Shown in pieces: positions 12,913 through 44,800 of a stretch of DNA of 57,513 nt. How positions within the stretch are numbered: the stretch's first letter is position 1; every line of letters begins with the position of its first letter. Origin of the DNA: an uncultured Bacteriovorax sp. (GTDB taxonomy: Bacteria > Bdellovibrionota > UBA1018); assembly GCA_964508305.1 (NCBI GenBank), contig CAZDSX010000006.1:14151-71663 (forward strand). Direction: 5' to 3'. A model generated the notes under the pieces. The model was not told the DNA's origin and ran no database searches. It saw nothing but the letters and a program-made list of their open reading frames with translations. Made by a program: the position numbers and the translations under genes.

Positions 12913-18769
<5,857 letters not shown>

Positions 18770-20335: not shown

Positions 20336-20356
20336 GCTGAGCTCCTTGGCTTGGGC

Positions 20357-23834: not shown

Positions 23835-23851
23835 GGCTTATCTTCCCGGGA

Positions 23852-25141: not shown

Positions 25142-25144
25142 GGC

Positions 25145-26278: not shown

Positions 26279-26292
26279 TTGCTCGTGCCGCC

Positions 26293-28988: not shown

Positions 28989-29010
28989 GGGTCTTTTTCC
29001 TTGTTCGATC

Positions 29011-29496
29011 TCAGTGGCCCTTGCCCGAAAGTCCGTCGATCAGCTGATCTACGCCCTGCTGGGTAAGGTTCTCGTGGTAATCATCATTGAGCATCATGGC
29101 GGGCGCGGTGCCGCACGCGCCAAGGCACTCTTCTTCTGCCAGGGTGAATTTTCGGTCGGGAGTGGTTTCGCCGCACTTGATTCCGAGCTTCTTTTCCAGA
29201 TGCTCGACCAACTCATCGGCGCCGCGAAGGCAGCACGCCACGTTCGTGCAAACCTTGATGTGGTACTTGCCCACGGGCTTGAGGTTGTACATCGTGTAGA
29301 AGCTGGCCACTTCGCGCACCTGTGCGGGGTGGATCCCGATGTATTCTCCGATTTCCGCCAGCACTTCCTTCGGAAGCCAGCCATACTCTTCCTGTGCGGC
29401 ATGCAGGGCGGGCAACAGCAGCGCGACCTTGGTCGGATAGCGCGGCTCGAGCTTCTTCATTGCGTCGTAGAACTTCTGTGAAAGCTGCTTTGACAT
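29011..29496 (-). CDS. nuoE: NADH-quinone oxidoreductase subunit E
   Basis: VASFYTMY, CTNVACCLRG, ECLGACG 2Fe-2S ligands; start set at MSKQLSQ. Confidence 0.96.
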   Translation of the reverse strand: MSKQLSQKFYDAMKKLEPRYPTKVALLLPALHAAQEEYGWLPKEVLAEIGEYIGIHPAQVREVASFYTMYNLKPVGKYHIKVCTNVACCLRGADELVEHLEKKLGIKCGETTPDRKFTLAEEECLGACGTAPAMMLNDDYHENLTQQGVDQLIDGLSGKGH

Positions 29497-29498
29497 AA

Positions 29499-30767
29499 TC
29501 AGCGGTCGAGCTCCCCTGCGATGATGTTGATTGAGCCGAGGTTTGCGACCATGTCGGCGAGCTTGGCCCCCTGGGACATTTCGCTGAGGCCCTGGTAGTG
29601 CCACACGGACGGTCCGCGGATCCTCATTCGGTGTGCCCGCGATGCCCCCTTGCTCACGATGTAGAAACCGAGCTCTCCGTTGCTTGCCTCAAAAGTCGTG
29701 TAGGCCTCGCCAGCCGGGACGTCGAATCCGGTCATGAAGAACTTGAAGTGATGGATCAGTCCCTCCATCGTGTTGAACACGACGTCCTTGTCCGGAATGC
29801 GAACGCGCTTGTCCTCCGCCCAGATGGGTCCGGGCTGCAGGCGATCGGCGCACTGGGCGATGATATTGAGGGACTGGAAGATCTCGGCCATTCGGACAAG
29901 GTAACGGTCGAAGACATCGCCGTTCTTGCCAACAGGAACATCAAACTCGACGTTCTTGTAGAACATGACTGGCTGATCGCGCCTGAGGTCCCGGTCAATG
30001 CCCGACGCCCTTGCGGACGGCCCGGAGTAGCTGTAGCGCATGCACTGCTCGCGCGTGAACACCCCCACCCCCTGCGTGCGCTGGCACCAAATCCGGTTAT
30101 TGGTGAGAAGCTTGTCCATTTCCTGCACGGTCTTGCGAGTCCGAAGGACCCAATCCTTGACCTCCTTTTCCCATCCGGGGGGAGCGTCGTGCATCAGGCC
30201 GCCGATTCGCGTGTAGGAAGTCGTGAGCCGAGCACCGCAAAGCTTCTCGATGAGCGTGTAGGCCTCTTCCCGCTGGTGGAACCCATACAAAAAGAAGGAA
30301 AACGCGCCCAGGTCGACTGCGTTGATCCCCACGCAAATCAGGTGGTCGATCACACGCGCCATCTCGGCGCAAATCATCCGGATCCAAACCGCGCGGGTGG
30401 GGACTTCGATTCCCATGAGGCGCTCGACCGACATGGCATAGGTGACGTTGTTGATCAGCGCTGAACAATAGTTCAGGCGATCCGTGTACACGATGAAGTT
30501 GTGGTAGGTGCGGTTTTCCCCGAGCTTTTCCTTGGCCCGGTGGGTGTATCCAAACTCACAGTAGGACTTTTCGATGGTCTCGCCGTTCATCCTGGCACAC
30601 ATGCGGAGCGCGCCGTGCATGGCAGGATGCGTGGGCCCGATGTTCACATAGACCCGGGAGTCCTTCCAGAGATCATCTGGATCACTCTCGTGGGGAACAT
30701 CGACTGTGATCGAGTAGTTCTCGGACTCGGGCAGGCCAAACTCGCGATGATTTACCGGTTTTTCCAT
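29499..30767 (-). CDS. nuoD: NADH-quinone oxidoreductase subunit D
   Basis: GPTHPAMHGALR, DRLNY, EASNGELG, GSINIIAGELDR. Confidence 0.97.
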   Translation of the reverse strand: MEKPVNHREFGLPESENYSITVDVPHESDPDDLWKDSRVYVNIGPTHPAMHGALRMCARMNGETIEKSYCEFGYTHRAKEKLGENRTYHNFIVYTDRLNYCSALINNVTYAMSVERLMGIEVPTRAVWIRMICAEMARVIDHLICVGINAVDLGAFSFFLYGFHQREEAYTLIEKLCGARLTTSYTRIGGLMHDAPPGWEKEVKDWVLRTRKTVQEMDKLLTNNRIWCQRTQGVGVFTREQCMRYSYSGPSARASGIDRDLRRDQPVMFYKNVEFDVPVGKNGDVFDRYLVRMAEIFQSLNIIAQCADRLQPGPIWAEDKRVRIPDKDVVFNTMEGLIHHFKFFMTGFDVPAGEAYTTFEASNGELGFYIVSKGASRAHRMRIRGPSVWHYQGLSEMSQGAKLADMVANLGSINIIAGELDR

Positions 30768-30770
30768 TTC

Positions 30771-31340
30771 TCAGTCCTTGAGCAGGTCGACGTTGATCGG
30801 CATGGCATCCGGGAAGAGCTGGTAGCCGCGAAGCGGGTAGTCCTTGCGGAGCGGGTGCCCCACCCATCGCTCATCCATGAGGATGCGTCGCAGGTCCGGG
30901 TGGCCCTCGAACTTCACTCCAAACATGTCCCAGACCTCACGCTCCGGCCAGTTGGCGCCGTCCCAGACTCCCGTAACCGAGGGAACAGGCTTGCCCTCGT
31001 TCACCTGGACCTTGAAGCGGATGCGCGCACCCGTGGAAAATGACGTCAGGTTGTAGACCACCTCAAATCGCGGCTCTACTTCCTCGTCCGTAGCCGTGAT
31101 GTCGGAGAGGAAGGCATATTCAAAGCCTTCAGACTCCTTTGCAAAGCGCAGCACCTCTACGATTGCCGCGGCCTCAACGTAAACCACCGGAACATCAACG
31201 GGATGCTCTCCGGGCCAGCGGATCTCGGTGATCTTGGAGCCGAACTGCGCCTCAAGCTTCTGGGACTGTTTCTTCCAAAGCTCGGCGTGTTTCTTGGCAA
31301 AATCGCCATAAATGGTCGGAACCGGCGTGCGAATATCCAT
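30771..31340 (-). CDS. nuoC: NADH-quinone oxidoreductase subunit C
   Basis: RFEVVYNL, WPEREVWDMFGVKFEGHPDLRRIL, GHPLRKDYP; TAATG overlap with the nuoB stop at 31340. Confidence 0.96.
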   Translation of the reverse strand: MDIRTPVPTIYGDFAKKHAELWKKQSQKLEAQFGSKITEIRWPGEHPVDVPVVYVEAAAIVEVLRFAKESEGFEYAFLSDITATDEEVEPRFEVVYNLTSFSTGARIRFKVQVNEGKPVPSVTGVWDGANWPEREVWDMFGVKFEGHPDLRRILMDERWVGHPLRKDYPLRGYQLFPDAMPINVDLLKD

Positions 31341-31843
31341 TAGACAGTGCCTCCGCGGGCTTCGCGCTCGCGGCGCTGGGAGTGCGTGTCTCCCTTTTGG
31401 ATCTTCTCCTGGAGCCTCATCAGGGCATGAAGCACGCCCTCGGGCGCCGGGGGACAACCAGGCACGTAGATATCGACCGGAACCACCGTGTCGATGCCCT
31501 GTGTGACGCTATAAACATTGAAGATGCCGCCCGAAGAGGCACAAGCCCCGAACGACATGACCCACTTGGGGTCAGCCATCTGGTCGTAGATATTGCGAAG
31601 CACCGGCGCCATCTTGGCATTCACGATTCCGGCAACGATCAGCAGGTCTGCCTGCCGCGGAGAAAACCGAATTGCCTCCGCGCCAAAGCGGGCCATATCG
31701 TAGTCAGAGCAAAGCGTGGCCATCATCTCGATCCCGCAGCAGCTCGTGCCGAAGGGAAGCGGCCAGAGCGCATTCTTTCGGCCCCAACTGATGAAGTCGT
31801 CCAAGCGGGTGGTCAAGAAACTTGAGGATCCGTCTTTTGCCAT
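31340..31843 (-). CDS. nuoB: NADH-quinone oxidoreductase subunit B
   Basis: [26 protein letters not shown]. Confidence 0.97.
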
Positions 31844-31846
31844 AAT

Positions 31847-32206
31847 CTAATCCCACTCCAGCGCGCCCTTGCCCAGGACATAGAAGTAGCCCACGAGCAG
31901 GATTGCCACGAATACCGCCATCTCCACGAGGATGAAGGCGTTGATTGAAAGATACTTTTTGTAGACCACGGCCCACGGATAAAAGAAGAGCGCCTCTACG
32001 TCGAAGAGCAGGAAGAGGATGGCCACGAGGTAGAATCGCACGCTGAAGCGCTGGTGCGCATCGCCGACCGGATCCATCCCGCACTCAAAGGGCATGTTCT
32101 TTCGCTTGTTCGGGGACTTGGGTCCAAGCAGCGACGAAAGCAGAAGAGCGCCTCCGCCGATGGCTGCCCCAACGGCCATCAGGATCAAAACCGGTAAGTA
32201 GTCCAT
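31847..32206 (-). CDS. nuoA: NADH-quinone oxidoreductase subunit A
   Basis: PFECG, RFYLVAILFLLFDVE, YPWA; start set at MDYLPVL. Confidence 0.96.
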   Translation of the reverse strand: MDYLPVLILMAVGAAIGGGALLLSSLLGPKSPNKRKNMPFECGMDPVGDAHQRFSVRFYLVAILFLLFDVEALFFYPWAVVYKKYLSINAFILVEMAVFVAILLVGYFYVLGKGALEWD

Positions 32207-32243
32207 GGTGAAGGGTTTTATATCTCGGGCGGGAAACAGCGGG

Positions 32244-33725
32244 CTACCAGAAAATAAACCGGAGTGACTGACTCGCCCATCGAAGGAGTGCGTCCGCAAA
32301 AATTGGCGCAAGCACGAGGGGCACACCTAGACAAAAAAGGAACACGCGCTGTTCCAGGGCGGGGGCAGGAGGCTCACCGACCTCAGACATACTCTTTTCG
32401 CCAACAGGCAGAAGCAGCGCCAGGAGAAGACGACCTGCCGCCACTACCGTCAAGGTCATGGCGCCCAGCCCGAGCACGGCAAGCACATGCCACTCCCGGC
32501 GGACTGCCGCCCCGATGAGTGCAAACTTGCCAATGCTGCCGGCAAACGGAGGGAGCCCGAGCCAGGACACCGTGAAACAAAGGAGGGCTACGGCCTCCCA
32601 GGGGCGATCCCTCAGTGAGCCGCGCAGGCCCGAGAGCTCGGCCGTTCCGCTCCGGGCGACCCCAAGGCTCAGGACATACGAAACCCCGGCAAGCGAGACG
32701 AGGTCGACCACGAGGTTGAACAGGATTGCGGCGAGGCCGACTTCTTCAAGGATCAAGAGGCCGAGGAGCAGTAGCCCGGTCTGCGAGAGGGCCACACACG
32801 CAAGGAGACGCTTGGCATTTCCCTGCCTGACGGAAAGAAAAGCGGGCACCAGGAAGGAGAGCCCGGCACAAAACGCGACCCAAAGCGTCCAGTCCCACCC
32901 GCCCAGCGGCAGCCACTTTCCTGGATCCAGTGCCGCTTGCGAGAAGACGACGACCCAGAGTCGCGCGGCGACGGCAAATCCGGCCGCGCGAACCCCGGCG
33001 GCCAGGAACACACCGGCGGGTGAGGGCGCCCCCTGCAGTACGTCGATGGACCAAAGCTGGGACGGAAAAGCGACCATCGCCGAGGAGAGGCCCACAAAGA
33101 GGGTGGCAAAAACCGCGAGACAAAAGGCCGGCCCGGGAGGGGAGAGCACGAGTCGCTGGTGGACCTCGTAGATATTGGCGCTTCCCGTGTGGATGAAGAG
33201 CGCCATTGCTGCAAGGAGCAGGAACACGCCCGAGGTCGAGGCAACGCCAAGCCACTTCACAGCGGCTTCGGCAGACTGGTGGTGGCGCCGACCAAAGCCA
33301 GCCAGAAGGTATCCCACCAGTGATGCCGACTGGATGGAGAGCGCCGAGACAAAGAGGTTCGATGACTCCCCCGCAAGCATGAGTGCCAGCGCACCGACCA
33401 GCACCAGCGCGCAGAACTCGGCCCGGGAACCACCTTCAAGCTCCTCGCCCAGGCAGGCGGAGGAGACGACGACGGATGCCAGGAGCAGGAACACCAGCTT
33501 GAAATAAAGGCTGAAGCCGTCGAGCGAGAGCGCCCCTCCAAACAGCTGGACCGCACCCTGCTGGTAGCTCACGAGCGTCTGGATGAAGGCGCCGCCCAGT
33601 CCAAGGAGTGCCGTCGGAAGAATGAGCCTCACCCTCTCGCCGTGGTGTGCGCTCTCACTGAGCACGAGGCCAATCACGGTGGCCACGATGTAGATCTCCG
33701 GAAGAAGGAGTCCGAGGTCCTTCAT
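32244..33725 (-). CDS. divergent NuoN-like antiporter-type subunit (key charged residues largely substituted)
   Basis: EAAVKW, FPSQLWSIDVLQGAP, KRLLAC and LGLPPFAGSIGKF align with NuoN; LE>IQ, K>A, K>R. Confidence 0.85.
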   Translation of the reverse strand: MKDLGLLLPEIYIVATVIGLVLSESAHHGERVRLILPTALLGLGGAFIQTLVSYQQGAVQLFGGALSLDGFSLYFKLVFLLLASVVVSSACLGEELEGGSRAEFCALVLVGALALMLAGESSNLFVSALSIQSASLVGYLLAGFGRRHHQSAEAAVKWLGVASTSGVFLLLAAMALFIHTGSANIYEVHQRLVLSPPGPAFCLAVFATLFVGLSSAMVAFPSQLWSIDVLQGAPSPAGVFLAAGVRAAGFAVAARLWVVVFSQAALDPGKWLPLGGWDWTLWVAFCAGLSFLVPAFLSVRQGNAKRLLACVALSQTGLLLLGLLILEEVGLAAILFNLVVDLVSLAGVSYVLSLGVARSGTAELSGLRGSLRDRPWEAVALLCFTVSWLGLPPFAGSIGKFALIGAAVRREWHVLAVLGLGAMTLTVVAAGRLLLALLLPVGEKSMSEVGEPPAPALEQRVFLFCLGVPLVLAPIFADALLRWASQSLRFIFW

Positions 33726-33735
33726 GGCTCAGCTC

Positions 33736-35337
33736 TCACTCTTCCTTCTTTTTGGGTTCAATTCCTTCGGCTGGTGCCGCGGAGGGCGAGGGCGCCGGAA
33801 CGGCCGCCGCCGGCGACGTCGCAGTCTTTTCCTCGGATTTCCCTGCAATCAGGGCAACTGCCGCCGGACGAACCCAGTCCAGAAACGGCTTGGGATAGAA
33901 ACCGATCAAGACAAGCAGCACCAGCAGCGGAACCAGAAACCCGCGTTCCCGCGCGGTGAGCTCGGCTTCGGTCGAAGACTTTCGCTCGGATCCTCGCTCG
34001 GGCCCGAGGAAGATCTGCTTGAATACCCCAAACAGGCTGTAGGTCACGAGCATGAATCCTGCACCCACCCCGAAGAGCGAAACGGGGTGGGTGGTGAAGC
34101 TGCCCATCACGATCAGGCTTTGCCCGACGAATCCACCCAGTCCGGGGAGGCCAAGGAAGCCGCCCAGTGCAAGCGCCATCACCGCGGCAGCGGCGGGGGC
34201 GCGCTCCACGAGCCCGCCGGCAGCACCCACTTCGTGGAGCCCCGTTCGATCCGCCAGTGCCCCGAACAGCAGGCCCATTGAGGTGACTGCAAGGCCGATG
34301 GCAAGCTGGTGGTAGATCACTCCAACGAGGGCACTGGGATCCTGGCTTCCCAATCCGATCAGAGAAAGGCCGAGATGCACGAGGACCAGCCGCGAGAGAA
34401 GCCCCGAGAGCCTGGTCTGCGAGAGGATGGTTACCGAGCCGACGAAAAGGTTCACCACTCCCGCAAGCACGACCCAGCTCGAGACCGAGTCAAGGACATC
34501 CTGGAAAAGCAGGTGGGAGACTCGGGCAAACATCATCACCGCCGAGGGCACGACCACTCCGGCCACTGCGACAAATACGGATGCAGGCGCCTCGTTTGCA
34601 AATTCCGCAAACCAGCCGTGGAAAGGCCAAACCGGGGCGCGTAGCGCCAGTCCCAGGCATACGAACAGGAAGGCGAGGTGCGATACGGACACCGAGATTC
34701 CCGCAAGGACGATTTCCTTTGCGGGAACTCCGCCCGAAGACACAAGGTCCCGGATCAGGAAGCTGTGTGGATCCTTCGCATAATAGATGAGGATGAAGGC
34801 CGCAAATAGAAGGCTGTTTCCGATGCTGGAGGTCACCAGCGAGCGAAACGCAGCCTGCTCCTTCTTTTCTCCGCCCCAAATGCCCACAAGAAAAAACACG
34901 GGTACCGCGGTTAGACCCCAGAAAAAGAAGAGCAGGAAAAGGTCTTGTGCCGTCGCCGCGCCCAGGAGGGCGGCCTGAAGGATCAGGAGGAGCGAATAAA
35001 GTCCTCGTGCGCCCCGGGCGCGATCCCACTCGGAGGCAATCAGCACCGGAAAAACAGTGCTGATCAGCATCAGCATCAGGACATTGGTTCCATCGACCGA
35101 AAGCTCGTAATTGATCGCGTAGGACCCGATCCACGGAAGCCTATCCACGAGATGCGGGCCCGCCGTGCCCACATCACCCGCGCCGATCAGGGTCAGCACG
35201 ACGCCACCCAACAGGGCCGATGCGATGCTCGCTCCAAGCGCAAGCCATCGCGCCGAGGCGCCCGGGCTGGCTGCGGCCTGGAAGATGGCGCCCAGCAGGG
35301 GAAGCAGAATCATGCCCGTCAGGAGATGGCTGTTCAC
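33736..35337 (-). CDS. divergent NuoM-like subunit (key charged residues substituted)
   Basis: LPWIGSYAINYELSVDG, FLVGIWGG, LRAPVWPFHGW and LPGLGGFVGQ align with NuoM. Confidence 0.88.
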   Translation of the reverse strand: MNSHLLTGMILLPLLGAIFQAAASPGASARWLALGASIASALLGGVVLTLIGAGDVGTAGPHLVDRLPWIGSYAINYELSVDGTNVLMLMLISTVFPVLIASEWDRARGARGLYSLLLILQAALLGAATAQDLFLLFFFWGLTAVPVFFLVGIWGGEKKEQAAFRSLVTSSIGNSLLFAAFILIYYAKDPHSFLIRDLVSSGGVPAKEIVLAGISVSVSHLAFLFVCLGLALRAPVWPFHGWFAEFANEAPASVFVAVAGVVVPSAVMMFARVSHLLFQDVLDSVSSWVVLAGVVNLFVGSVTILSQTRLSGLLSRLVLVHLGLSLIGLGSQDPSALVGVIYHQLAIGLAVTSMGLLFGALADRTGLHEVGAAGGLVERAPAAAAVMALALGGFLGLPGLGGFVGQSLIVMGSFTTHPVSLFGVGAGFMLVTYSLFGVFKQIFLGPERGSERKSSTEAELTARERGFLVPLLVLLVLIGFYPKPFLDWVRPAAVALIAGKSEEKTATSPAAAVPAPSPSAAPAEGIEPKKKEE

Positions 35338-35346
35338 AGGGTTCCT

Positions 35347-37239
35347 CTAGCGATTGATGTGATTCCAAAAATGTAGCAACAGCGCGAGCGTGAAGCCAAT
35401 TGTAAACAACAGATAGCCCTGCACGGAGCCGCTCACCAGCAGCTGCAATCCCTTGGCTGGAATTTCCACTGCCGCGCGCGTGGCTGCGTCCATCCTTGCG
35501 CGCGTCCATTGATCAAATCGTGAGAATCCCGCAATCAGCGCTGCTCCGATCGCGCTCGCCCTGGCAAGCACGCCAAGCACGGCGCGGGCACGAATCAAGC
35601 GATCGCCGAATGCGGGAGCCGAGCGAAGCGCCCCTACTGCCCAGTCCACGAGGCGGGTCACGCCAAAACCCGTGGCTGCAAACTTCCAGCTGAGCGCGCC
35701 GGATCGGAGCACCTTCTCCGGAACCTGGAATAGAAGCAGGAGCGCGAGTGCCACCATCCAGGCCCAGGAAATCAGCTGACCGGTCTGGCCTTGAGCCTGG
35801 CCGCTTGAGCCAAACAGCTCCGCGCCAAGCGAGGGCCCCACTCCCAGGTCACGCGAGGCGGTGAACACCCCGAGCCACTCTCCGGTCCAGAATATCGCAG
35901 AAGAAAACAGCAGGATCACCGTCGGCGCGGTCAGGCGCCACCCCGTGCTCCAGGTCTCTTCCCCGCGGAGCTGATTGCGTGCAGCCGGAGAGAGCGTGCA
36001 GAGCGCCGCAACGGAGACCATGACCCATCCAAGAACAAAGCAGGCCCCGTCCAGTGCGCGATCAATGCTCGTCAGGCAGGAAACAAGGACCGCCGCTCCC
36101 GCGAAACACAGCCCACCCGACCAGGAGAGGGCGATGAATGCCTTGACCAGCTTCTCAGGAAGCTCAGCCTCCTTTGCTCCCGTGTCGGCGGGACCGCGAA
36201 GGACCAGGGCCGTTGCCCACGCCAGTGAACCAAAGACAAATGCCGCAGTTCCTCCGGCCTGCCTGCCGGCAAGCAGCATGACCGCCGCCGAAAGCATGGT
36301 TGCCGCACCAGAAAGGGCAACAAGTCCGCCGCCGGAGAGGGCCGAAGAGATGGCGGACCATGCCGTGAGCGCGGCAAGGAGCAGTGCCGGGGCCACGAGC
36401 CAGGGCACCAGCCCGCTCGAAACCAGATCAGGCGTCAGCCGGTAGATCATCGCGAGTCCCGACCACGCCGATGCGCACGAGACGAGGAGGGCGCTGGTCA
36501 GTGGCCCCTTGAATCTGGCCGGGGCCTGAACCACCCACCCCATGGTCGGAAAGGCGCCGGCCTGCAAGAGCGCGCCGAAAAAAAGCATCGCCAGACCAAC
36601 GGGCTGTTCTGCGGCGGAAAAACCGTTTGTTTCCGTCCAAGAGGTCGTGCCCCCGCCCGCAAGGATGGCCGCCAGGCCGAGGGCGGACATGAGGATTCCC
36701 AGCGCTCGCTCCCGCGAAAAAGAGGTGGCCATGTCCGCGCCGTCTTGTCCGCTCCTGCCGGAGTGGACCAGCACGATCCAGCCGGAGAGACCCGAGACGA
36801 GCTGTCCCAGCAGAATCACCCAGAGACTGGTGGCCCACCAGGAGAGCGTCACACCACACAGCGCAAGCGTGGCCGCGCCCTGGGCGAAGCCGATGCGGCC
36901 CTTGGGGCTGGAAACAATGGGCTCAAACAGGAACACATATCCAAGGATCAGCGCCATGATGCCGCCGGCGGCAACGCCTGCCCGAGTCGCGATCACGCCC
37001 GCTTCGACGCTGGCTCCGGGGGATGGCAGAGTGAAGTAAGATAGAGACCAGGAGGCCGCATCCCCAGAGCCGATGCTCGCGGCACCGATTCCCAGAAAAA
37101 GCAGAACCAGAAGCCAAGTCACCAGGGGGGCGACGGAGCGAAGGATTGACCAGCGAGGCGAGCCCCTCAGCGAAGAGACGCCGGCAAGCGCCCCCATCAC
37201 GAGGGCCAGGGCAAAAACCCAGGGAAAGGCATTAATCAT
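35347..37239 (-). CDS. highly divergent NuoL-like subunit
   Basis: Many TM helices, NuoL-like length and operon position; LLQAGAFPTMGWV and PLTSALL align with GKSAQVPLYVWL and PTPVSALI; C-terminal SGSVQGYLL resembles NGSIQVYA. Confidence 0.7.
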   Translation of the reverse strand: MINAFPWVFALALVMGALAGVSSLRGSPRWSILRSVAPLVTWLLVLLFLGIGAASIGSGDAASWSLSYFTLPSPGASVEAGVIATRAGVAAGGIMALILGYVFLFEPIVSSPKGRIGFAQGAATLALCGVTLSWWATSLWVILLGQLVSGLSGWIVLVHSGRSGQDGADMATSFSRERALGILMSALGLAAILAGGGTTSWTETNGFSAAEQPVGLAMLFFGALLQAGAFPTMGWVVQAPARFKGPLTSALLVSCASAWSGLAMIYRLTPDLVSSGLVPWLVAPALLLAALTAWSAISSALSGGGLVALSGAATMLSAAVMLLAGRQAGGTAAFVFGSLAWATALVLRGPADTGAKEAELPEKLVKAFIALSWSGGLCFAGAAVLVSCLTSIDRALDGACFVLGWVMVSVAALCTLSPAARNQLRGEETWSTGWRLTAPTVILLFSSAIFWTGEWLGVFTASRDLGVGPSLGAELFGSSGQAQGQTGQLISWAWMVALALLLLFQVPEKVLRSGALSWKFAATGFGVTRLVDWAVGALRSAPAFGDRLIRARAVLGVLARASAIGAALIAGFSRFDQWTRARMDAATRAAVEIPAKGLQLLVSGSVQGYLLFTIGFTLALLLHFWNHINR

Positions 37240-37273
37240 GGGCTGCCCCCTCTCGGGCCATCCAGGCGCGCAT

Positions 37274-37570
37274 CTAGTGCCTCATCCTTCCTAGCTCGGA
37301 CATCTCGGGGCGCGATCTCAGGAGATGGAGCCTGACTGCGAAGCCCAGTCCTACCAATGCCTGGATGTGGGCAAAAACCATCACGAGAAGTGCCATGGAG
37401 CGCGCGCGATCCAGAAACCCAGGCGCCGCTCCCGGGTCCGCCATCAAGACCAGGGCGAGAACAAGGCCCGAGAAGAAGAGCTGTACCCCAACCAGCACGC
37501 CGAGCAGGCTGCGCTGGGTGAGTACCGCAAAAGTCGAAAGCGAAAACAGGGCGGCGAGCGCAATGGTCAT
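37274..37570 (-). CDS. divergent NuoK-like subunit (both Glu replaced by Gln)
   Basis: 98 aa, 3 TM; GVQLFFSGLVL vs SIELMLNAVNL, AHIQALVGLG vs AAAESAVGLG. Confidence 0.8.
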   Translation of the reverse strand: MTIALAALFSLSTFAVLTQRSLLGVLVGVQLFFSGLVLALVLMADPGAAPGFLDRARSMALLVMVFAHIQALVGLGFAVRLHLLRSRPEMSELGRMRH

Positions 37571-38097
37571 GGACCACCCCCGATGTCGGGATTTCTCTCG
37601 ACCCCGCCCGCACGTGTGATCACTCCCGTGGCAATCGCAGCCGCAAGCGCCACTCCCGCAAGAAGCTCGACCAAGACGAATCTCTCGTCAAAGTCCGTCG
37701 AACCGCGAATGGGCGAGGCTCCGGTGCCTTCGGCCACCGTGGTGCCCGCGGTGGCAAGCTCAAGCAACCACCACACCACCACTCCAACGCCGATGCTTGC
37801 CAGTGCGTGGAATGAGCGGGCAAGAGGGCTGCGGGAGGGCCCATTCACCGCAACCGATACACCCACTCCAAGGAGGTCTGAGTGGAAAAAATACACTGCC
37901 GCCACAAGTGTCGAAGCGATCCAAAGCAGAACAGCCAGTGTCTCTGCGCCCGCGGAGAGCAGGATCGATCCTCCGGCCAACTGGCCGAGCCAAAGTGAGA
38001 TGACCGCCCGCCTGGGCTCCCCCGCCGTGCACACTGCTGCGGCCGAACCAAGGACGACGGCCGATGCAAACCAGACCCCGGGCGAATCAACGATCAT
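37567..38097 (-). CDS. highly divergent NuoJ-like subunit
   Basis: 176 aa, about 5 TM, lies between the I-like and K-like genes with ATGA overlaps; FVLVELLAGVALAAAIA resembles PFELTSVLLLAGIVGA. Confidence 0.65.
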   Translation of the reverse strand: MIVDSPGVWFASAVVLGSAAAVCTAGEPRRAVISLWLGQLAGGSILLSAGAETLAVLLWIASTLVAAVYFFHSDLLGVGVSVAVNGPSRSPLARSFHALASIGVGVVVWWLLELATAGTTVAEGTGASPIRGSTDFDERFVLVELLAGVALAAAIATGVITRAGGVERNPDIGGGP

Positions 38098-38636
38098 TCA
38101 ACACCGCCCGCTTCTGACTGAAGCTCTCGCTGTCGGCGCCAGCGCTCGCGCATTTCCCTCGAAATGGGTCCTCGCCCATAGGCAGCCCGCAGATCGGAGG
38201 CCTGCTCTGCGGCGCCCTCATAGCGCCGGGAGTGGGTGAGCGAGGTAGGCTCACAGGCCTCAACGCACAGGCCGCAAAACAGGCACTTCGAGTAATCGAT
38301 GTTGAACGTGCTGACCCAGAGCTTTCCGGGCTTTGGACCTTCCTCGGTATGGATCTCAAAACAGCCCGTAGGACACACTTCCGAACAGGCATAGCAACCG
38401 GTGCAGCGCTGGATGTCGTTCTTCAGGAGACCCCGACTCCGGGTGGGCAGCTCGTCCGGCGTTCGCGAAGAGACCGGATCGGGATAGAGCTCGGTGACCT
38501 CCTTTTTGGCGTCAGAGCTCGAAAGAAGATAGGAGAGCCCCGTGCTGAGGCCGCGCCAGAGGGTCAGGAGCGACCTGAACAGCGATGCAAAATAGCCGCG
38601 AAAGCTGCCAAAAAACGTGCTCTCCGTCGTCCTCAT
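38094..38636 (-). CDS. NuoI-like 2x[4Fe-4S] subunit
   Basis: VTELYPD...RSRG, CTGCYACSEVCP and CLFCGLCVEACEP; start at ATG 38636 overlapping the H-like stop. Confidence 0.9.
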   Translation of the reverse strand: MRTTESTFFGSFRGYFASLFRSLLTLWRGLSTGLSYLLSSSDAKKEVTELYPDPVSSRTPDELPTRSRGLLKNDIQRCTGCYACSEVCPTGCFEIHTEEGPKPGKLWVSTFNIDYSKCLFCGLCVEACEPTSLTHSRRYEGAAEQASDLRAAYGRGPISREMRERWRRQRELQSEAGGVE

Positions 38637-39646
38637 GCAGGCCCCCCGGAAAATAGGCTGGCCCCCACCAGTGCGATCAGGGCGAGCGGCGCCAACACCC
38701 TCCACGCAAAGTCATGTGCCTGATCGGAGCGGACTGAAGGAAGCGTCCTTGAAAGGAGTGAAACCAAAAGCAGAAGTACCAGTGTCTTGATGGCGACCAC
38801 TCCCGCTCCCAGCATCATTGCCACGGGGAGGTCCTGGCTTGCCCCCGAGACCAGCAGCTGCGGAAGGGCTGCACCCCCGAAATAAACTTTTACTCCAAGA
38901 AGAAACCAACAGAAAACGGCCACCCGCTGGCTCCAGCGAACCCAGATCAGGCGAATTCCCGCCTCTCCGGGAAATCCCGCCACCACCCACGCCAGCGGCT
39001 CGGAGTCGCGCTGGAACGGACGCGCCGAGAACATCAGCAGTCCGGCGGCGAAGAAAACCGCCGCAGAAATGGCCGTAAATGGGCTCGAAAACACGAGCCA
39101 CCGCCAGGGCGCCCAACCCTGGGCCTGGTCAAACCGCTCCCACGCGAGACCTCCAGCAGCAAGGCCCGCATGCAGGAACGCAATCAGCGCCGCCGGAAAC
39201 CCAGCAACAGCAAGCGCCACCTGGCGGATCGACCCGAACCGGGATTCAACCGCCCCGTCTCTCCAGCTTAGCAGGAGACCCAGCCACGCAAAGGCGAGCG
39301 CGAAGAACAGGGATAGCAGGGCTGCCATGGGCGCATCGAGAAGCGGCGCTCCCGGAACCACAGGAGTAATCGACAAGAGAGCAAACAAGGGAACACCCTG
39401 CAGCCACCAGAGGGCGGGCCCGCGATCCGCCTTCGATCCGGGCCGGATCTTCTGGAGCAGTCGGAGGAACTCGGCAAGGGGCTGCAGCCAGCCGCCCTGC
39501 CCCGCGCGGCTCGGACCCACGCGGGCCTGCATGTCGGCACCCACCTTGGCGTCCATCCAGGACCAGAGATAAACCCCGGGCAGGACGAACACCAAGAGGA
39601 TCAGGAGGCTCTCGGTGGCAGCAGTGACCCAGAAGGATTCCATCAC
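38633..39646 (-). CDS. divergent NuoH-like subunit
   Basis: KVGADMQARVGPSRAG..GWLQPLAE, RPFQ, YFGG, LPSVRSDQ; many acidic residues lost. Confidence 0.85.
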   Translation of the reverse strand: MMESFWVTAATESLLILLVFVLPGVYLWSWMDAKVGADMQARVGPSRAGQGGWLQPLAEFLRLLQKIRPGSKADRGPALWWLQGVPLFALLSITPVVPGAPLLDAPMAALLSLFFALAFAWLGLLLSWRDGAVESRFGSIRQVALAVAGFPAALIAFLHAGLAAGGLAWERFDQAQGWAPWRWLVFSSPFTAISAAVFFAAGLLMFSARPFQRDSEPLAWVVAGFPGEAGIRLIWVRWSQRVAVFCWFLLGVKVYFGGAALPQLLVSGASQDLPVAMMLGAGVVAIKTLVLLLLVSLLSRTLPSVRSDQAHDFAWRVLAPLALIALVGASLFSGGPA

Positions 39647-40794
39647 TTGTCCACCTCGGTGATCTGAAGGTCGAGGCTGTGAAGCAGGAGCGAGAGGTCT
39701 TGAATCGGCGCATCCGCCAGGTACTCGGGGAGGGCCCGGTGGAGCGCCATTGAAGGAGTGAAGAACTCCACCTCCGTGGGGCCAGGCTTTTCTCCGTCCG
39801 AAGCAAGAGCAACCGAGAGGCGGCCGCGTGGCGACTCCACTGCTGCTGTTGCGCGTCCCGCTGGAAGCGGCGCGGACTCCTGCTGCTTCTGTCGATAGGG
39901 TCCCGCTGGAAGGCGCTGACTCAGCTCCATCAGCAGCTGGGCGCTTTGCACGATTTCGTGGAGACGATAAACAAACCGATGATGCGCGTCTCCTGCGCTC
40001 ACGACGGCGTCGACCGTGCCGATTTCGGTGAGCCTTGCACCAAAGTGCGGTCGCCCCTCATCCATGACCCTCAGGTCGGCCGAGGGAGAGAAAACTTTTG
40101 CTGGAATGCCGGTGATCTTGTGCCTGTCGACCATTGACCTGCCGATCACGCCCCGTCCCCCAACTCGCCTGACAAAGGCCTCGTTGTAGGTCAACAGGTC
40201 GTTGTATTCCTTCACCCGCTGGAGGACCTGCTGGCTGGTCTCCTGCACGCGCTCCAGAAATCCATCCGTCACATCCTCGCGGACCCCGCCCGGCAACAGA
40301 AATGCGAGCGCATGCCTCGCCCCACTCAAGAGCTCCAGAAGGTCGAGAATCCGTTCACGCTCGCGCAACAGGAGGTGGAACGCCGCCTCAGAGCCTGCTG
40401 CGCGTGAGACCTTGGCAAGATGAAGGAGGTGCGAGGAGATCCGGGAAAGCTCTCCAAGAATGACCCGGATTCCGCGGCCACGCGCCGGCGTCTCAATTCC
40501 CCCAAGCTCCTCGGCGGCGAGGCAAAAGCACCACTCATAAAACAGGGCCGCCTCTGGGTCGATGCGATCCAGGAAGGGCATCGCTCCACGCCAAGTCTGG
40601 CGCGTGAGGATGGCCTCAACCGAGCGGCGAGTGAAGCCCGTCTCAATCTCCGCCTGGCGCACCAGTTCGCCGTCGAGCTGGAGGTGGATACGGTAGGCTC
40701 CGGATAAGTCAGAGTGGAATGGCCCGATGGACCAGGCGATGGGCCTGGACCGAACGATCTCTCCGCCGCTTGGGAATGGCGCTCCACCGCTCAT
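39643..40794 (-). CDS. divergent NuoD-like subunit (no NuoC fusion, no NiFe Cys, quinone-site His/Tyr substituted)
   Basis: GPFHSDLSGAYR, DRIDPE, ELSRISSHL, ESPRGRL, HSLDLQITEVDK; start at ATG 40794 overlapping the B-like stop. Confidence 0.88.
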   Translation of the reverse strand: MSGGAPFPSGGEIVRSRPIAWSIGPFHSDLSGAYRIHLQLDGELVRQAEIETGFTRRSVEAILTRQTWRGAMPFLDRIDPEAALFYEWCFCLAAEELGGIETPARGRGIRVILGELSRISSHLLHLAKVSRAAGSEAAFHLLLRERERILDLLELLSGARHALAFLLPGGVREDVTDGFLERVQETSQQVLQRVKEYNDLLTYNEAFVRRVGGRGVIGRSMVDRHKITGIPAKVFSPSADLRVMDEGRPHFGARLTEIGTVDAVVSAGDAHHRFVYRLHEIVQSAQLLMELSQRLPAGPYRQKQQESAPLPAGRATAAVESPRGRLSVALASDGEKPGPTEVEFFTPSMALHRALPEYLADAPIQDLSLLLHSLDLQITEVDK

Positions 40795-41318
40795 CGAAGA
40801 TCCCACTCGTCCGTTTCCATCGTTGCTGCACGATCGGGATGCCGGGGCAGCTTGCGCGCGACGATTTTTCGGCCCCGGATCTTTTCCTGGAGCCGGATCA
40901 GGCCATCCATGATCGCCTCTGGCCTGGGGGGGCAGCCGGGGACGAAGACATCCACGGGGATCACGCCCGAAAGGCCCGCGACCGTCTCGCCGGCCGTTGC
41001 GTCAGGCCCAAAGGCCCCGCCAGAGCAGGCGCAGGACCCGACTGCAATCACATATCGCGGCGTTGGCATCTGCTCGTAGACCCGGCGCACTTCGGCGGCC
41101 GCCTTCTGGGTCAGCGCTCCTGAGACGATCAGGAGGTCTGAGAATATCGGATCTTTTTCAGGCAGTGCGCCGAACCGCTCAAGGTCGTACCTGCACCCCG
41201 TGACCTGGAGCAGTTCGTCGGCACAGCATCCGGTATTCACGGCAAAATATCGCAGGGCCGAGGCCTGTGCCCATCCAAGCACCTCGGCAAGCGTCGACGA
41301 AATGTAGCCGCCGCTCAT
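40791..41318 (-). CDS. NuoB-like subunit with intact N2 ligands
   Basis: GCCADE, YDLERFG, GSCACSGG, VPGCPPRPEA. Confidence 0.92.
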   Translation of the reverse strand: MSGGYISSTLAEVLGWAQASALRYFAVNTGCCADELLQVTGCRYDLERFGALPEKDPIFSDLLIVSGALTQKAAAEVRRVYEQMPTPRYVIAVGSCACSGGAFGPDATAGETVAGLSGVIPVDVFVPGCPPRPEAIMDGLIRLQEKIRGRKIVARKLPRHPDRAATMETDEWDLR

Positions 41319-41743
41319 GGCCCACCCCCGGCGCCGCCCTCGGGATGTGTCTCATCAGCCTCCCGATACACGCGATCATGCCAGCGGAGATCTCCCTTGC
41401 GGTTGGCATAGACCAGGGCGGTGGCCCCGACGAGCGTAACCGAGAGGACAAGAAGGGTGGTGGCCGGGCTTCCGCCCAGCGCAGCAAACGGCACCAGCAG
41501 TACGAACGGAAGAGCGAGCAGGCCTGCCAGCTGCACGGCGGTGAAATATCGGGTGTTGATGGATTGAAGAACGGGGATGTCGCGCTCGCTCGGCGGGGCC
41601 TCTGCCGCCGCGCCATCTCCCCTGGGGCCAAGACCCGCCAGTCGCGTCAGAAAATGCAGCAGCACCGGTACCGCAAGGGCCACGGCTACGGTGACAAAAA
41701 CAACGCGATAGGCATCCCAGCCATGGGACGCAACCTGATCCAT
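41315..41743 (-). CDS. divergent NuoA-like subunit
   Basis: 3 TM, first gene of the cluster; SINTRYFTAV..LLALPFVLLVPFA and NRKGDLRW align with RFYLVAILFLLFDVE..YPWA and KGALEW. Confidence 0.75.
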   Translation of the reverse strand: MDQVASHGWDAYRVVFVTVAVALAVPVLLHFLTRLAGLGPRGDGAAAEAPPSERDIPVLQSINTRYFTAVQLAGLLALPFVLLVPFAALGGSPATTLLVLSVTLVGATALVYANRKGDLRWHDRVYREADETHPEGGAGGGP

Positions 41744-41772: not shown

Positions 41773-41801
41773 ACGCTAATGAAGTTGAAAGGCGGTGTCA
41801 A
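41773..41801 (-). promoter_or_regulatory. sigma70-type promoter for the nuo-like operon
   Basis: TTGACA (41801-41796)-N17-TAGCGT (41778-41773). Confidence 0.65.
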
Positions 41802-41813: not shown

Positions 41814-41826
41814 CCTCAGGAATTTA
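41808..41826. promoter_or_regulatory. palindrome over the mfd -10/start, candidate operator or hairpin
   Basis: TAAATTCC-tca-GGAATTTA. Confidence 0.45.
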
Positions 41827-44800
41827 TGGTTGCGAGCTCGCTCTCCAAGATCTTCCGGTCAGCCGCCTCGCTCCGCGAGCCCATGCGCATCTCTGGTGTT
41901 CGCGGCTCGGCCCGCTCCTGGTTCCTGCTCCGCCTCCAGGAAGAGGTCCGCGGAACCATCCTCATGCTCTGTCCGGACGACGACTCGGCTGCCGAGATGC
42001 TTTCGGATTATGAGTCCCTGCGCGGACTGGCTCCGGGACCAACGATCGATGGGCTGCACTTTCCACACTGGGAGCACAGCCTTTACTCCAGCGTCTCGCC
42101 CTCCATCAGGATCCGGCTCCAGCGTGCGCTAGTCCTTGGCCAGCTGGCGGACACCCCCGACACGCCGCGGATCATCTTTACCTCTCCTCCTGCTCTCGCT
42201 TCGCGCACCCCGCCGCCTGCGATGTTCTCTTCCGCCGCACTGAAGATCCGCCCGGGGCGTACGGACCTCCCCAGAGAGTCGCTCCTTCGATCGCTCGTGG
42301 ACGCTGGCTACCTTCGGGTCGAAACCGTTGAAGACCCCGGCACCGTCGCACTAAGAGGAGAGATCCTCGATGTCTATCCGGTGGGGGCCGAGCACCCCTT
42401 CCGTGTCGAATTCTTTGATGACGAGATTGAAAAAGTTCGGCCGTTTGACCCCACCTCCCAACGGACTGCGCCCGCACACTCGGGTGCGAACGGGATCACG
42501 GTTCTTCCATGCCGGGAGGTGCTGATCAACGCCTCGACCGCACCCCAAATCCGAGAAGCCCTCAAGCTCCATGCTGACGACGCAGGAATCCCGAGGACGG
42601 TGCGGGATCCCATCCTCTCGTCGCTGGCTCCGGGGGCCTATCCGGAACGCGCCGAGGCCTGGGCCCCGTTTGCCTTCCCGTCGCCAGCAAGTCTCGCCTC
42701 ATTTATCCCCTCCTCGGCGTGCTGGGTCATGTGGGACGACCTTGGGTGTGACCAGGCGTGGGATGAGTTCTGGCAAAAGGAGCGGCAGTCCCACTCCAGG
42801 CTCGTGGATAACCCGGACCTTGCCGGCAGCATCCTGCCCCCGCCTGAGCGAGCATACGACCCCGCGGGTCACTCCTCGCCCTCTCTGCATTTCGCCTACC
42901 GACTTCAAAAGGTGGCGCTCACTGATCTCGACGATCTGCCGACCATCGAGAGTGACGATGCGCCCGCAAGCCAGCATCGTGCGGGGATCCGCACCAACGA
43001 AGATCTATCCGCCGCCCCGGGCAAGTCCTCTCTGGAGCTGCTCTCTGAGAAGTTCGCCCTTTGGAAAAAACAGGGCTTCAGGGTGGTGGCTGACTCCGCA
43101 ACCCAGGGACAAGCCGAACGCCTGGCACACCTCCTGTCGGAGCGAGGGATTGCGGTCAAGACCTCCGGGGCGCCGGAGCCGGGCGTGATCCTCTGCAGGG
43201 AGTCGGCGCTCTCCTCGGGATTCCGCTGGCCCAGTGAGGGATGGGTCTTCCTCACCGAGGCCGAGGTCCTTGGGCGCGCAAAGTCCGGCGGCCGCTCCCG
43301 CGGCCGCACGAAGGCCCTCACTCGAAAACAGTCCGAAGCTTCAAATGCCGAGGACTGGGCCGGTCTCGATGCCCTCTCTGACTTGTCGCCGGGGGACTCG
43401 GTCGTGCACATCGATCACGGCGTCGGAAGATACCAGGGACTCGTACGGCTTGAGCTGTCCGGGGCGCCTGCCGACTTCCTCCTTTTGGAATACGCCAACA
43501 AGGACAAGCTTTACCTTCCGGTCTACCGGCTCAACGTCATCCAAAAGCACGGCGCACTGGGGGACTCCGTCACCCTAGACAAGCTCGGAGGCCAGCAGTT
43601 CCAGAAGACCAAGGAAAAGGTCCGCGACTCGGTTCGCAAGATGGCGATCGACCTCGTGAGCCTCTATGCCGAACGGACCATCCGAACGGGCTTCAAGTTC
43701 TCCACTCGCGACGCGGAGTTTGAGGAGTTTGAAGCGCGCTTTCCCTATGACGAGACCCCCGACCAGGCAAAGGCCATCGACGCCGTGCTCGACGACATGG
43801 CCGCGGGCAAGATCATGGACCGCCTGGTTTGTGGTGATGTTGGATACGGAAAAACAGAGGTCGCCATGCGCGCAGCCTTCCGCGCCGCCAGCGATGGAAA
43901 ACAGGTCGCCGTCCTGGTGCCCACGACGCTGCTTGCCCATCAACATGAGCAGTCCTTCCGAGCCCGCCTTGCCGGACTTCCCGTCAACATCGCCTCCCTC
44001 TCCCGCTTCAAGTCCGCCAAGGAGCAAAAAGAAACGCTCAAGTCGCTGCGCGAGGGAAAGGTCGACATCCTGATCGGCACGCATCGCCTGCTTTCCAGGG
44101 ACGTGGAGTTCAGGGACCTGGGACTGCTGATTGTCGACGAGGAGCAGCGCTTTGGCGTTGAACACAAGGAAAAGATCAAGAGCCTTAAGCTCAATGTGCC
44201 CGTGATCACGCTCACTGCAACGCCCATCCCCAGGACCCTCCACATGGCTCTCTCCGGACTTCGGGAAATCAGCCTGATCCGGACGCCTCCGGTGGACCGA
44301 CTTCCCATCCGTACCTTTGTCTCCAAACAGGATGATGCGCTGATCAAGAGGGCCGTGGATTTTGAGCTGAGCCGCGGCGGCCAGGTCTTCTACCTATACA
44401 ACCGCGTACAGTCGATCTACGAAGCCGCGTCCCACCTCCAGAAGCTCTGTCCGCAGGCCAGGGTCGTGGTCGGACATGGGCAGATGTCCGAGGGAGAGCT
44501 TGAGGCATCGATCCGGGATTTCTATGACAAGAAATCCAACGTCCTGGTCTGCACGAGCATCATCGAATCCGGGATCGACCTGCCGTCCGCAAATACCATC
44601 CTCATCAACCGCGCGGACACCTTCGGGCTCGCGCAACTCTACCAGATCCGCGGCCGCGTCGGCCGCGGCCAGCAACGCGGTTATGCCTACCTCATGATCC
44701 CTGCCGAGCAGTCGGTGAGCGAGGACGCCAAGAAGCGCCTGGATGTGCTTCAGCGTTTCGTCGAGCTGGGAAGCGGCTTCAGCGTGGCGTCGCACGACCT

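Follow-up and report, generated by a model that had tools for sequence, protein, structure and literature searches.

A maintained complex I-like gene cluster with replaced quinone-site and proton-transfer residues upstream of the canonical nuo operon in uncultured Bdellovibrionota

How quinone chemistry in complex I is coupled to pumping ~200 Å away is still debated. Among the relatives of the enzyme, the 11-subunit Nuo11/NDH-1/Fpo type has a short NuoD and no dedicated NADH-oxidising module, and ferredoxin is the established electron donor for NDH-1 and for some Fpo-like complexes. Ehr and MBX/MBS, which are related to complex I and the group 4 hydrogenases, have a NuoD-like subunit without nickel-iron (NiFe) ligands or a canonical quinone site, but their membrane subunits are of the hydrogenase/Mrp type rather than NuoA/J/K/N plus a lateral-helix NuoL, and these keep their antiporter charges. 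Here we describe a second complex I-like gene cluster, cluster 2, which lies directly upstream of a canonical nuo operon in 57,513 nucleotides (nt) of DNA from an uncultured Bacteriovorax sp. (GenBank assembly GCA_964508305.1, contig CAZDSX010000006.1, positions 14,151 to 71,663), hereafter the window. Cluster 2 keeps every ligand of its iron-sulfur (Fe-S) centres, while the residues on which the debate about coupling in complex I centres are replaced. With a probability of roughly 0.55, we read it as a selection-maintained, non-energy-conserving redox module that is derived from complex I and carries Fe-S clusters.

Like canonical complex I, cluster 2 has homologous subunits encoded in the same order, a NuoD fold, a NuoL fold with its lateral helix HL, the ligands of Fe-S centres N2, N6a and N6b, and the N-terminal loop residues of NuoH. 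It differs from the canonical complex in lacking NuoE, NuoF and NuoG, and in the subclade of the window NuoC as well, and in that the quinone triad, the NuoK Glu pair, the charges of NuoL, NuoM and NuoN, and residues of NuoA, NuoJ and NuoH are all replaced. The gene order of the 11-subunit type, ABCDHIJKLMN, is common to most members of the cluster-2 family, as are the short NuoD and the lack of a dedicated NADH-oxidising module; since such a module is lacking, ferredoxin would be a plausible donor for cluster 2 too. However, Nuo11 references from Calditrichota and Planctomycetota keep every mechanistic residue, whereas the cluster-2 family keeps almost none. The NiFe CxxC ligands that mark the large subunit of group 4 NiFe hydrogenases are absent from the NuoD-like subunit, D2. 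Its only two Cys lie in EWCFCLAAEE, and both the N-terminal loop and the C-terminus (...ITEVDK) are free of Cys.

Loss of quinone ligands has precedent. Fpo lacks His38 and Asp139, and the Nuo complexes of Sulfolobus, Nautiliales and Desulfurobacteriales lack His38, Tyr87 and Asp139; these types have been read as ancestral, predating quinone reactivity (PMC4758237). An earlier note on the window, made from its letters alone, had assumed that complexes without NuoEFG normally keep their catalytic residues, which is true of the Nuo11 references but not of these lineages. They demonstrate that canonical quinone chemistry is not a prerequisite for a Nuo scaffold, and the NuoD pocket of Fpo and Sulfolobus-type Nuo resembles that of cluster 2 in having no quinone hydrogen-bonding residues, although in cluster 2 the loss is most simply read as derived. 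A further parallel comes from complex III, whose core proteins resembling the mitochondrial processing peptidase (MPP) have lost their catalytic residues while their fold and assembly role stay under selection (PMC13631411). These are single subunits in an active complex, whereas cluster 2 is a whole 10-11-subunit complex. Two nuo clusters have been reported in Bdellovibrionota in general terms (PMC13147790), and these are ordinary paralogues, not members of the cluster-2 family. Consistent with the earlier note, which knew of no such system, our literature search found no account of the cluster-2 family and no published description of a complex I homologue whose whole proton-transfer network has been neutralised under selection. 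It is thus the neutralised membrane arm, rather than the loss of quinone ligands, that is the unusual part.

Gene content and predicted folds of cluster 2

Cluster 2 consists of ten open reading frames (ORFs) without internal stops, which occupy positions 41743-32244 of the minus strand in the order A-B-D-H-I-J-K-L-M-N. The genes, with their lengths in amino acids (aa) and the evidence for their identity, are as follows (the subunit N2 is not to be confused with Fe-S centre N2).

41315-41743, minus strand: A2, NuoA-like, 142 aa; family profile against NuoA (hhalign)
40791-41318, minus strand: B2, NuoB-like, 175 aa; PF01058 and the NCBIfam NuoB subfamily model
39643-40794, minus strand: D2, NuoD-like, 383 aa from ATG; PF00346 and AlphaFold2 (AF2)/Foldseek
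38633-39646, minus strand: H2, NuoH-like, 337 aa; PF00146
38094-38636, minus strand: I2, NuoI-like, 180 aa from ATG; Fer4 families and NuoI models
37567-38097, minus strand: J2, NuoJ-like, 176 aa; hhalign to NuoJ
37274-37570, minus strand: K2, NuoK-like, 98 aa; PF00420
35347-37239, minus strand: L2, highly diverged NuoL-like, 630 aa; hhalign and AF2/Foldseek
33736-35337, minus strand: M2, NuoM-like, 533 aa; PF00361 and TIGR01972
32244-33725, minus strand: N2, NuoN-like, 493 aa; PF00361 and TIGR01770

Longer ORFs with GTG starts exist for D2 (387 aa, reaching 40806) and I2 (reaching 38705), but the D2 gene is called from the ATG (383 aa), and gene calls in relatives give 180 aa for I2. Six consecutive junctions (A2/B2, B2/D2, D2/H2, H2/I2, I2/J2 and J2/K2) are 4-nt ATGA or GTGA overlaps, the remaining three (K2/L2, L2/M2 and M2/N2) are gaps of 34, 9 and 10 nt, and the N2 stop lies 37 nt ahead of the canonical nuoA ATG at 32206. 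The ten intact same-strand ORFs, the six overlaps and the 37-nt distance to nuoA had all been read from the sequence in the earlier note, and each was borne out.

Seven of the subunits (B, D, H, I, K, M and N) matched Nuo models in Pfam and NCBIfam, although mostly with scores far under the curated NCBIfam cut-offs. B2 was the only subunit above a cut-off, namely those of two broad subfamily models (166.6 bits for the NuoB subfamily model). D2 scored 233.6 bits (equivalog cut-off 360), H2 82.4 (cut-off 305), K2 25 (cut-off 57) and N2 164.8 (TIGR01770, cut-off 332.6), while M2 missed the subfamily cut-off of TIGR01972 by ~2 bits (261.5 vs 263.8). No match to A2, J2 or L2 was found among the Pfam or NCBIfam models. 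Profiles built from the family nevertheless matched NuoA, NuoJ, NuoK, NuoL and NuoC at 97.5-99.8% probability in hhalign (97.5% for A2 with NuoA, 99.2% for J2 with NuoJ, and 99.0% over 541 columns for L2 with NuoL), and the L2 match extended to residue 638 of the 645 in canonical NuoL.

The divergence of L2 is also apparent from homologue searches, since a word-indexed search recovered only L2 itself and one 70% identical relative, and an exhaustive phmmer scan of 1.84 billion representative proteins recovered 67 relatives. Predicted structures agreed with the profile matches. The AF2 model of D2 (predicted local distance difference test score, pLDDT, 89.8) superposed on complex I 49-kDa/NuoD chains with a Foldseek template-modelling score of 0.89, and that of L2 (pLDDT 86.2) contained a 76-residue lateral helix HL (residues 527-602) followed by a C-terminal transmembrane (TM) helix (606-628), with its top 50 Foldseek matches all being NuoL/ND5/NdhF chains. 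In the source databases, proteins of the NuoD2 family carry the name NADH-quinone oxidoreductase subunit D or hypothetical protein.

Retained Fe-S ligands and replaced mechanistic residues

All 12 Cys ligands of Fe-S centres N2, N6a and N6b are present in cluster 2 of the window, in agreement with the earlier note's statement that subunits B and I are well conserved. B2 has the four Cys of centre N2, including the CC doublet, and these are kept in 46-47 of 47 family members; I2 has both CxxCxxCxxxCP motifs (N6a and N6b), and all eight Cys are kept in 49/49.

To compare the remaining mechanistic positions, we aligned each subunit to its canonical counterpart in the window and to 13-32 reference sequences. 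The references were the other loci recovered when one genome for each GTDB species was scanned, and most belong to 11-subunit nuo clusters of other phyla (Calditrichota and Planctomycetota). The canonical operon served as the internal reference. Its NuoD, NuoH, NuoK, NuoL and NuoM score above the NCBIfam equivalog cut-offs (477 vs 459 bits for NuoD; 721 vs 556 for NuoL), its NuoB, NuoC and NuoI score above subfamily cut-offs, the NuoE, NuoF and NuoG domains were found, and every mechanistic residue is present in its subunits.

In the quinone pocket of D2 in the window (Thermus numbering), His38 is replaced by Ser, Tyr87 by Pro and Asp139 by Ala. Across the NuoD2 family, His38 is Pro in 42/50 members, Tyr87 is Pro in 48/50 and Asp139 is Ala, Ser or Thr; the first of the loop histidines of NuoD (Thermus His34) is retained. 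The connecting subunits are similarly altered. Both membrane Glu of K2 are Gln (43/47 and 40/47 in the family), the canonical TM2 Asp/Glu of the NuoA FDVE motif are Ala/Pro in A2, and the TM3 Tyr of NuoJ (E. coli/Thermus Tyr59) is Ser in J2. H2 has Ala, Ser or Phe in place of the SYE Glu and has lost the acidic TM5-6 loop, and the AEY Glu has become Arg (42/50 family members) or Gln; H2 retains the N-terminal loop residues, which lie where solved structures of complex I show contact with the peripheral arm.

The antiporter-like subunits carry replacements at the corresponding key positions. In M2 of the window, TM5 Glu is Gly, TM7 Lys is Arg, TM8 Lys is Pro and TM12 Glu is Gln, and the family has Gly, Ala or Ser at TM5, Arg at TM7 (39/39), Pro at TM8 (36/39) and His or Gln at TM12. 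In N2 of the window, TM5 Glu is Gln, TM7 Lys is Ala, TM8 Lys is Arg and TM12 Lys is retained; family members have Gln or Leu at TM5, Gln at TM7, Arg at TM8 (34/38) and a retained TM12 Lys in 29/38. L2 has lost all key Glu, Lys, His and Asp residues, with Leu, Gln, Val and Ala at TM5, TM7, TM8 and TM12 in the window, and a hydrophobic residue at TM5, Gln at TM7 and variable small residues at TM8 and TM12 in the family. The subclade of the window is the most stripped, in that residual axis residues of M2 and N2 are neutralised there too.

Across 36 mechanistic positions, of which 28 were chosen beforehand from the literature and eight, in NuoH, were picked after the alignment had been viewed, the canonical residue was kept in 2.6% of cells, compared to 43.7% at the remaining columns of these subunits with a conservation of 90% or more. 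A general loss of charge was considered and rejected, since in H, N and D the conserved charged residues were retained at least as well as the rest of the conserved ones; in NuoD2, 83% of conserved charged residues (surface or structural) are retained. Judged by these counts, the loss is specific to mechanistic positions rather than to charged residues at large. Furthermore, the family has acquired invariant residues of its own, 31 in M2 and 20 in D2, His140 and His271 among the latter. Since the replacements are themselves conserved as Gln, Arg and Pro, they argue for selection on a new state.

These substitutions do not result from alignment shifts, since flanking motifs align cleanly in K, M, N, D and H (for example GLPPxxGFxGKF, PTPxxxFLSxGxRAAGF, GPxHxxLPG and DRxDP), and a residue-level HMMER alignment to the solved Paracoccus NuoM (8qby_M) yielded the same M2 substitutions. 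The earlier note had described the pumping charges and the quinone-site residues as substituted throughout and the genes as selectively de-charged. Under profile-guided alignment the first description held apart from the TM12 Lys of N2 and His34 of NuoD, and proper alignment revealed no catalytic residue at a shifted position. The second was correct in that the charges have been replaced, but M2 TM7 and N2 TM8 are Arg, and the conserved Gln, Arg and Pro amount to a specific new state rather than simple stripping.

Distribution, selection, origin and expression signals

The same tandem locus was found in 47 species-level Bdellovibrionota genomes (L004-L050 and L060), and further copies of cluster 2 were present on metagenome contigs (L001/L002) and in an 86% identical relative (L084). 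The order is the same in all: a divergent mfd, then A2 B2 (C2) D2 H2 I2 J2 K2 L2 M2 N2, then canonical nuoA B C D. In relatives, the cluster-2 genes are all full length wherever the contig permits, N2 stands immediately upstream of canonical nuoA in 39/39 loci that hold both, and relatives of NuoD2 among metagenomic proteins are 36-87% identical to it. In addition, a 3.9-kb contig from an independent sequencing run (L003, Logan DRR333367) carries D2-L2 at 98-100% aa identity to the window and, judged by that identity, comes from essentially the same organism sampled elsewhere. FG-1, UBA1018, CAIRTR01 and JAMPXJ01, all of which have cluster 2, were assigned in a 2026 paper to GTDB class UBA1018, with 'Bdellonasia' proposed as its name; the class is uncultured, some of its members are magnetotactic, and its respiration is predicted to take place at low or very low O2, and both FG metagenome-assembled genomes (MAGs) have korAB (2-oxoglutarate:ferredoxin oxidoreductase) replacing 2-oxoglutarate dehydrogenase (PMC13200544).

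The absence of NuoC, which the earlier note had taken as part of the ten-gene set, applies only to the window and six close relatives, in which B2 abuts D2. About 41 loci have a NuoC-like gene (C2) between B2 and D2, and its loss is therefore secondary and confined to the subclade of the window. NuoE, NuoF and NuoG are absent from cluster 2 in the window and in all relatives. The seven loci without a NuoC-like gene are also the only ones in which B2 has a conserved acidic C-terminal extension of ~20 aa (…DRAATMETDEWDLR; 40791-40850 in the window). This tail may compensate for the loss of NuoC. That it is a remnant of NuoC was rejected, since it showed no similarity to the hidden Markov model (HMM) of C2 (E > 0.5).

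Comparison of the window with L084 gave ratios of nonsynonymous to synonymous substitution rates (dN/dS) of 0.04-0.21 for eight cluster-2 genes and of 0.008-0.06 for canonical A-D, values to be read as orders of magnitude only, because dS was saturated (1.4-2.1) and was not computable for B2 and D2. For the A, B and D pairs, dN was ~2- to 20-fold higher in cluster 2 than in the canonical operon. Mean pairwise identities within the family were 0.60 for B2, 0.55 for I2, 0.54 for D2, 0.51 for M2, 0.46 for H2, 0.45 for N2, 0.41 for K2, 0.37 for C2, 0.35 for A2, 0.34 for J2 and 0.27 for L2, compared to 0.65, 0.75 and 0.61 for canonical A1, B1 and C1 in the same genomes. Thus, cluster 2 evolves several-fold faster than the canonical operon yet is clearly constrained, most strongly in its Fe-S/Q module. 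Selection for open frames alone cannot explain it, since the Cys ligands are invariant and the replacement residues conserved. Taken together with the orthologues in 47 species-level genomes, these values sustain the earlier note's suggestion that cluster 2 is maintained rather than decaying, and they point to purifying selection on what is a fixed trait of this uncultured lineage.

D2 lacks an insertion of ~25 aa that is present, among the NuoDs compared, only in the resident NuoD and in the NuoD of L057, two loci that also encode NuoE/F; all other reference NuoDs, with every one from an 11-subunit cluster among them, are also short and without the insertion. In neighbour-joining (NJ) analysis the NuoD2 family was monophyletic, and D2 lay at a distance of 0.67 from the Nuo11 type and 0.75 from the resident type. 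The midpoint-rooted NJ tree, however, places the family on a long branch outside both reference groups, so that an origin from the Nuo11 type rests mainly on the shared indel and the distances. By these two measures cluster 2 did not arise by copying of the resident operon, and we tentatively propose that it descends from an 11-subunit complex I without NuoEFG. Nearly all of the nearest NuoDs outside the family carry His-His-Tyr-Asp, so the loss of the quinone residues is most simply explained as derived. A deeper relative (L085; ENA ERZ27297427, 8572-11706) has the same uvrA-pgm-pdxA-surA-surA-mfd synteny and an A-B-C-D-H cluster that runs to the contig end. It keeps Tyr87 and several NuoH acids, but has Ile for His38, His for Asp139 and no NuoA Asp/Glu. 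Its NuoD resembles the Fpo state (Tyr kept, His and Asp lost), and this intermediate set of residues suggests that the disarmament was stepwise.

The features that flank the cluster-2 genes are listed below.

41826-45410, plus strand: mfd, divergent from A2
41773-41801, minus strand: promoter-like TTGACA-N17-TAGCGT upstream of A2
32207-32243, minus strand: spacer of 37 nt from the N2 stop to the canonical nuoA ATG
18824-32206, minus strand: canonical 14-gene nuoA-N operon, the active paralogue

The promoter-like element, which lies ~30 nt upstream of A2 and had been read in the earlier note, was confirmed as an exact match with no occurrence in 100 shuffles. Phylogenetic footprinting showed that the motif, together with its spacer (TTGACAC...TTTCAACTTCAGTAnnCT), is kept upstream of A2 in 34/40 related loci. 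A generic consensus promoter scan did not call this element, because its -10 hexamer matches the consensus at only 3/6 positions. The 17-nt spacer (…TTTCAACTTCAG…) is as conserved as the hexamers across genomes whose NuoD2 proteins are ~40% identical, which suggests a regulator-binding site overlapping the promoter. This conservation also supports the view that cluster 2 is expressed, for which translational coupling at the overlapping junctions and purifying selection give further indirect support.

Across 39 loci the spacer between N2 and nuoA has a median length of 35.5 nt. In the window its 37 nt contain a conserved TAGCCC-N18-TATAAA motif and lack a terminator. Judged by eye, most of these loci share the motif: the N2 stop lies inside TAGCACC/TAGCxCC, and after 17-18 nt (G)CTATAAA follows, 7-12 nt before the canonical nuoA ATG and without a Shine-Dalgarno sequence. 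This arrangement looks like a -35/-10 promoter for a leaderless or very-short-leader canonical nuo mRNA, with the N2 stop within the -35 element. An Rfam scan of the cluster gave a single sub-threshold chance match (RF03537, 22.8 vs 38.3 bits) and no riboswitch or leader RNA family.

Several observations concern the surrounding sequence. The plus-strand AT skew over cluster 2 (32000-40000) is +0.23 to +0.34, as would fit hydrophobic residues encoded by T-rich codons of the minus strand, and the GC content is 0.62-0.64 over cluster 2 compared to 0.57-0.62 over the canonical operon. Canonical NuoG (26293-27729, minus strand) is short, at 478 aa, with N-terminal Fe-S domains and a molybdopterin-like domain only in fragments. 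Directly downstream of canonical nuoN is a gene for a 996-aa protein rich in tetratricopeptide repeats (TPR; 15779-18769, minus strand), whose ORF overlaps by ~190 nt the longest ORF of the next gene, for seryl-tRNA synthetase (14422-15966); the true start of the latter gene probably lies further downstream.

Possible functions of the cluster-2 complex

From these genes we infer how a cluster-2 complex could be assembled, expressed and supplied with electrons. If cluster 2 encodes a non-energy-conserving redox module, its Q-module (B/D/I) would be seated on an H-A-J-K-N-M-L membrane arm that includes the clamp helix of NuoL. The replacement set comprises Pro/Pro/Ala in NuoD, Gln/Gln in NuoK, Arg plus Pro in NuoM, and Gln plus Arg in NuoN. 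Since the quinone-ligating residues of NuoD are replaced, as is essentially every protonatable residue in the NuoH/A/J/K channel and in the three antiporter-like subunits, such a complex would be neither a redox-driven proton pump nor a canonical quinone reductase, and its neutralised arm would be locked and serve as a structural anchor in the membrane. Electrons would enter the wire formed by N6a, N6b and N2, and would then be held or handed to a non-canonical partner or acceptor. They could come from ferredoxin, as proposed for complexes without NuoEFG, or through subunits borrowed from the canonical complex; ferredoxin input would fit the NuoEFG-less ancestry and the korAB metabolism of class UBA1018, whereas borrowed subunits would fit the loss of NuoC. 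The cluster-2 complex and the canonical complex I encoded directly downstream would probably be produced together.

Several points weigh against this reading. No electron-input module or acceptor could be identified at the locus, and a membrane arm of seven subunits is hard to explain if only uncoupled electron transfer is needed. The conserved Cys ligands may reflect only a structural need for Fe-S clusters. Most family members retain Arg at TM7, Glu at TM11 and His at TM12 in M2, and Arg at TM8, Glu or Gln at TM11 and Lys at TM12 in N2, and these residual ionisable residues may leave room for rewired transport. Finally, the saturation of dS limits what the substitution rates can say, and every family member is a MAG or metagenome contig known from its genes alone.

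A bolder but distinctly less probable proposal is that the scaffold has been turned into a different machine, in which the Fe-S wire would serve as a redox input or sensor and the Gln/Arg/Pro arm would do something besides proton pumping. Such a machine may, for example, exert redox-gated control of canonical complex I or act in partnership with it, or may handle a non-proton substrate conformationally. If so, cluster 2 would represent the first case of a complete complex I turned pseudoenzyme or neo-enzyme, and one fixed across a bacterial class.

We consider it rather unlikely that cluster 2 encodes a structural or regulatory pseudoenzyme without electron flow, in which the Fe-S clusters would serve folding and the complex would be a scaffold, an assembly platform, or a hetero-supercomplex or decoy partner of canonical complex I. 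The linkage to the canonical operon is complete (39/39 loci, with the short spacer and no terminator), although the junction motif suggests that the canonical operon has a promoter of its own. Cluster 2 has no NuoEFG, and the NuoC-less subclade of the window must either borrow canonical NuoC or dispense with it; however, the short D2 without the insertion found in NuoDs from loci with NuoE/F argues weakly against docking of the canonical N-module. Arg, Gln and Pro replacements would suit modules locked in one conformation, and a precedent is known from complex III, in which the MPP-like core proteins are inactive (PMC13631411). In contrast, constraint is strongest on B2, I2 and D2, and the D2 pocket has conserved replacements of its own, which suggests a functional site rather than a bulk scaffold.

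Less probable again is a rewired machine that remains energy-coupled, in which the altered pocket would reduce another acceptor while the arm moved another ion or substrate, or pumped by an altered route. Its replacements are conserved, with R...E...H in M2 and R...E/Q...K in N2 of most members, and the many family-specific invariants, to which the Glu-to-Arg change in NuoH (42/50) can be added, would be in keeping with it; functional Nuo-type enzymes without His38 and Asp139 also exist, as in Fpo (PMC4758237). However, the whole connecting channel is neutral (NuoK has Gln/Gln, and the NuoA Asp/Glu, the NuoJ Tyr and the NuoH acids are lost), and protons are not shuttled by Arg. L2 is stripped, and the variable small or hydrophobic residues at its key positions look like drift. 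The new invariant Glu of M2 and N2 appear, as read from the alignment, in loops or helix ends, and the residual residues of these two subunits are neutralised in the subclade of the window.

The two weakest readings are effectively excluded. That cluster 2 is an ordinary second complex I isozyme whose substitutions are alignment artefacts could be entertained because the sequences are very divergent, A2, J2 and L2 match no family model and misalignment is conceivable in L2, but the flanking motifs are unambiguous in K, M, N, D and H, the identical replacement recurs in 40-50 independent sequences, and the HMMER alignment to Paracoccus NuoM agrees. That it is a decaying relic, or is kept open only against polarity on the canonical operon downstream, is the least probable of all: cluster 2 does evolve several-fold faster (family identity 0.27-0.60 vs 0.61-0.75 for canonical subunits), but dN/dS is far under 1 for every computable gene, the Cys ligands are invariant and the specific replacements conserved, ~50 lineages diverged to 36% NuoD identity show no frameshifts or truncations, and polarity selects open frames, not amino-acid sequence.

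Cluster 2 provides a natural dead-pump control for structural and computational work on complex I, as it separates the residues needed for fold and assembly, which are kept, from those needed for catalysis, which are lost. It also implies that the complex I scaffold has a second function worth 9.5 kb of genes in ~50 species. For the uncultured, partly magnetotactic Bdellovibrionota that carry it, routine labelling of these genes as NADH-quinone oxidoreductase would overstate their respiratory capacity.

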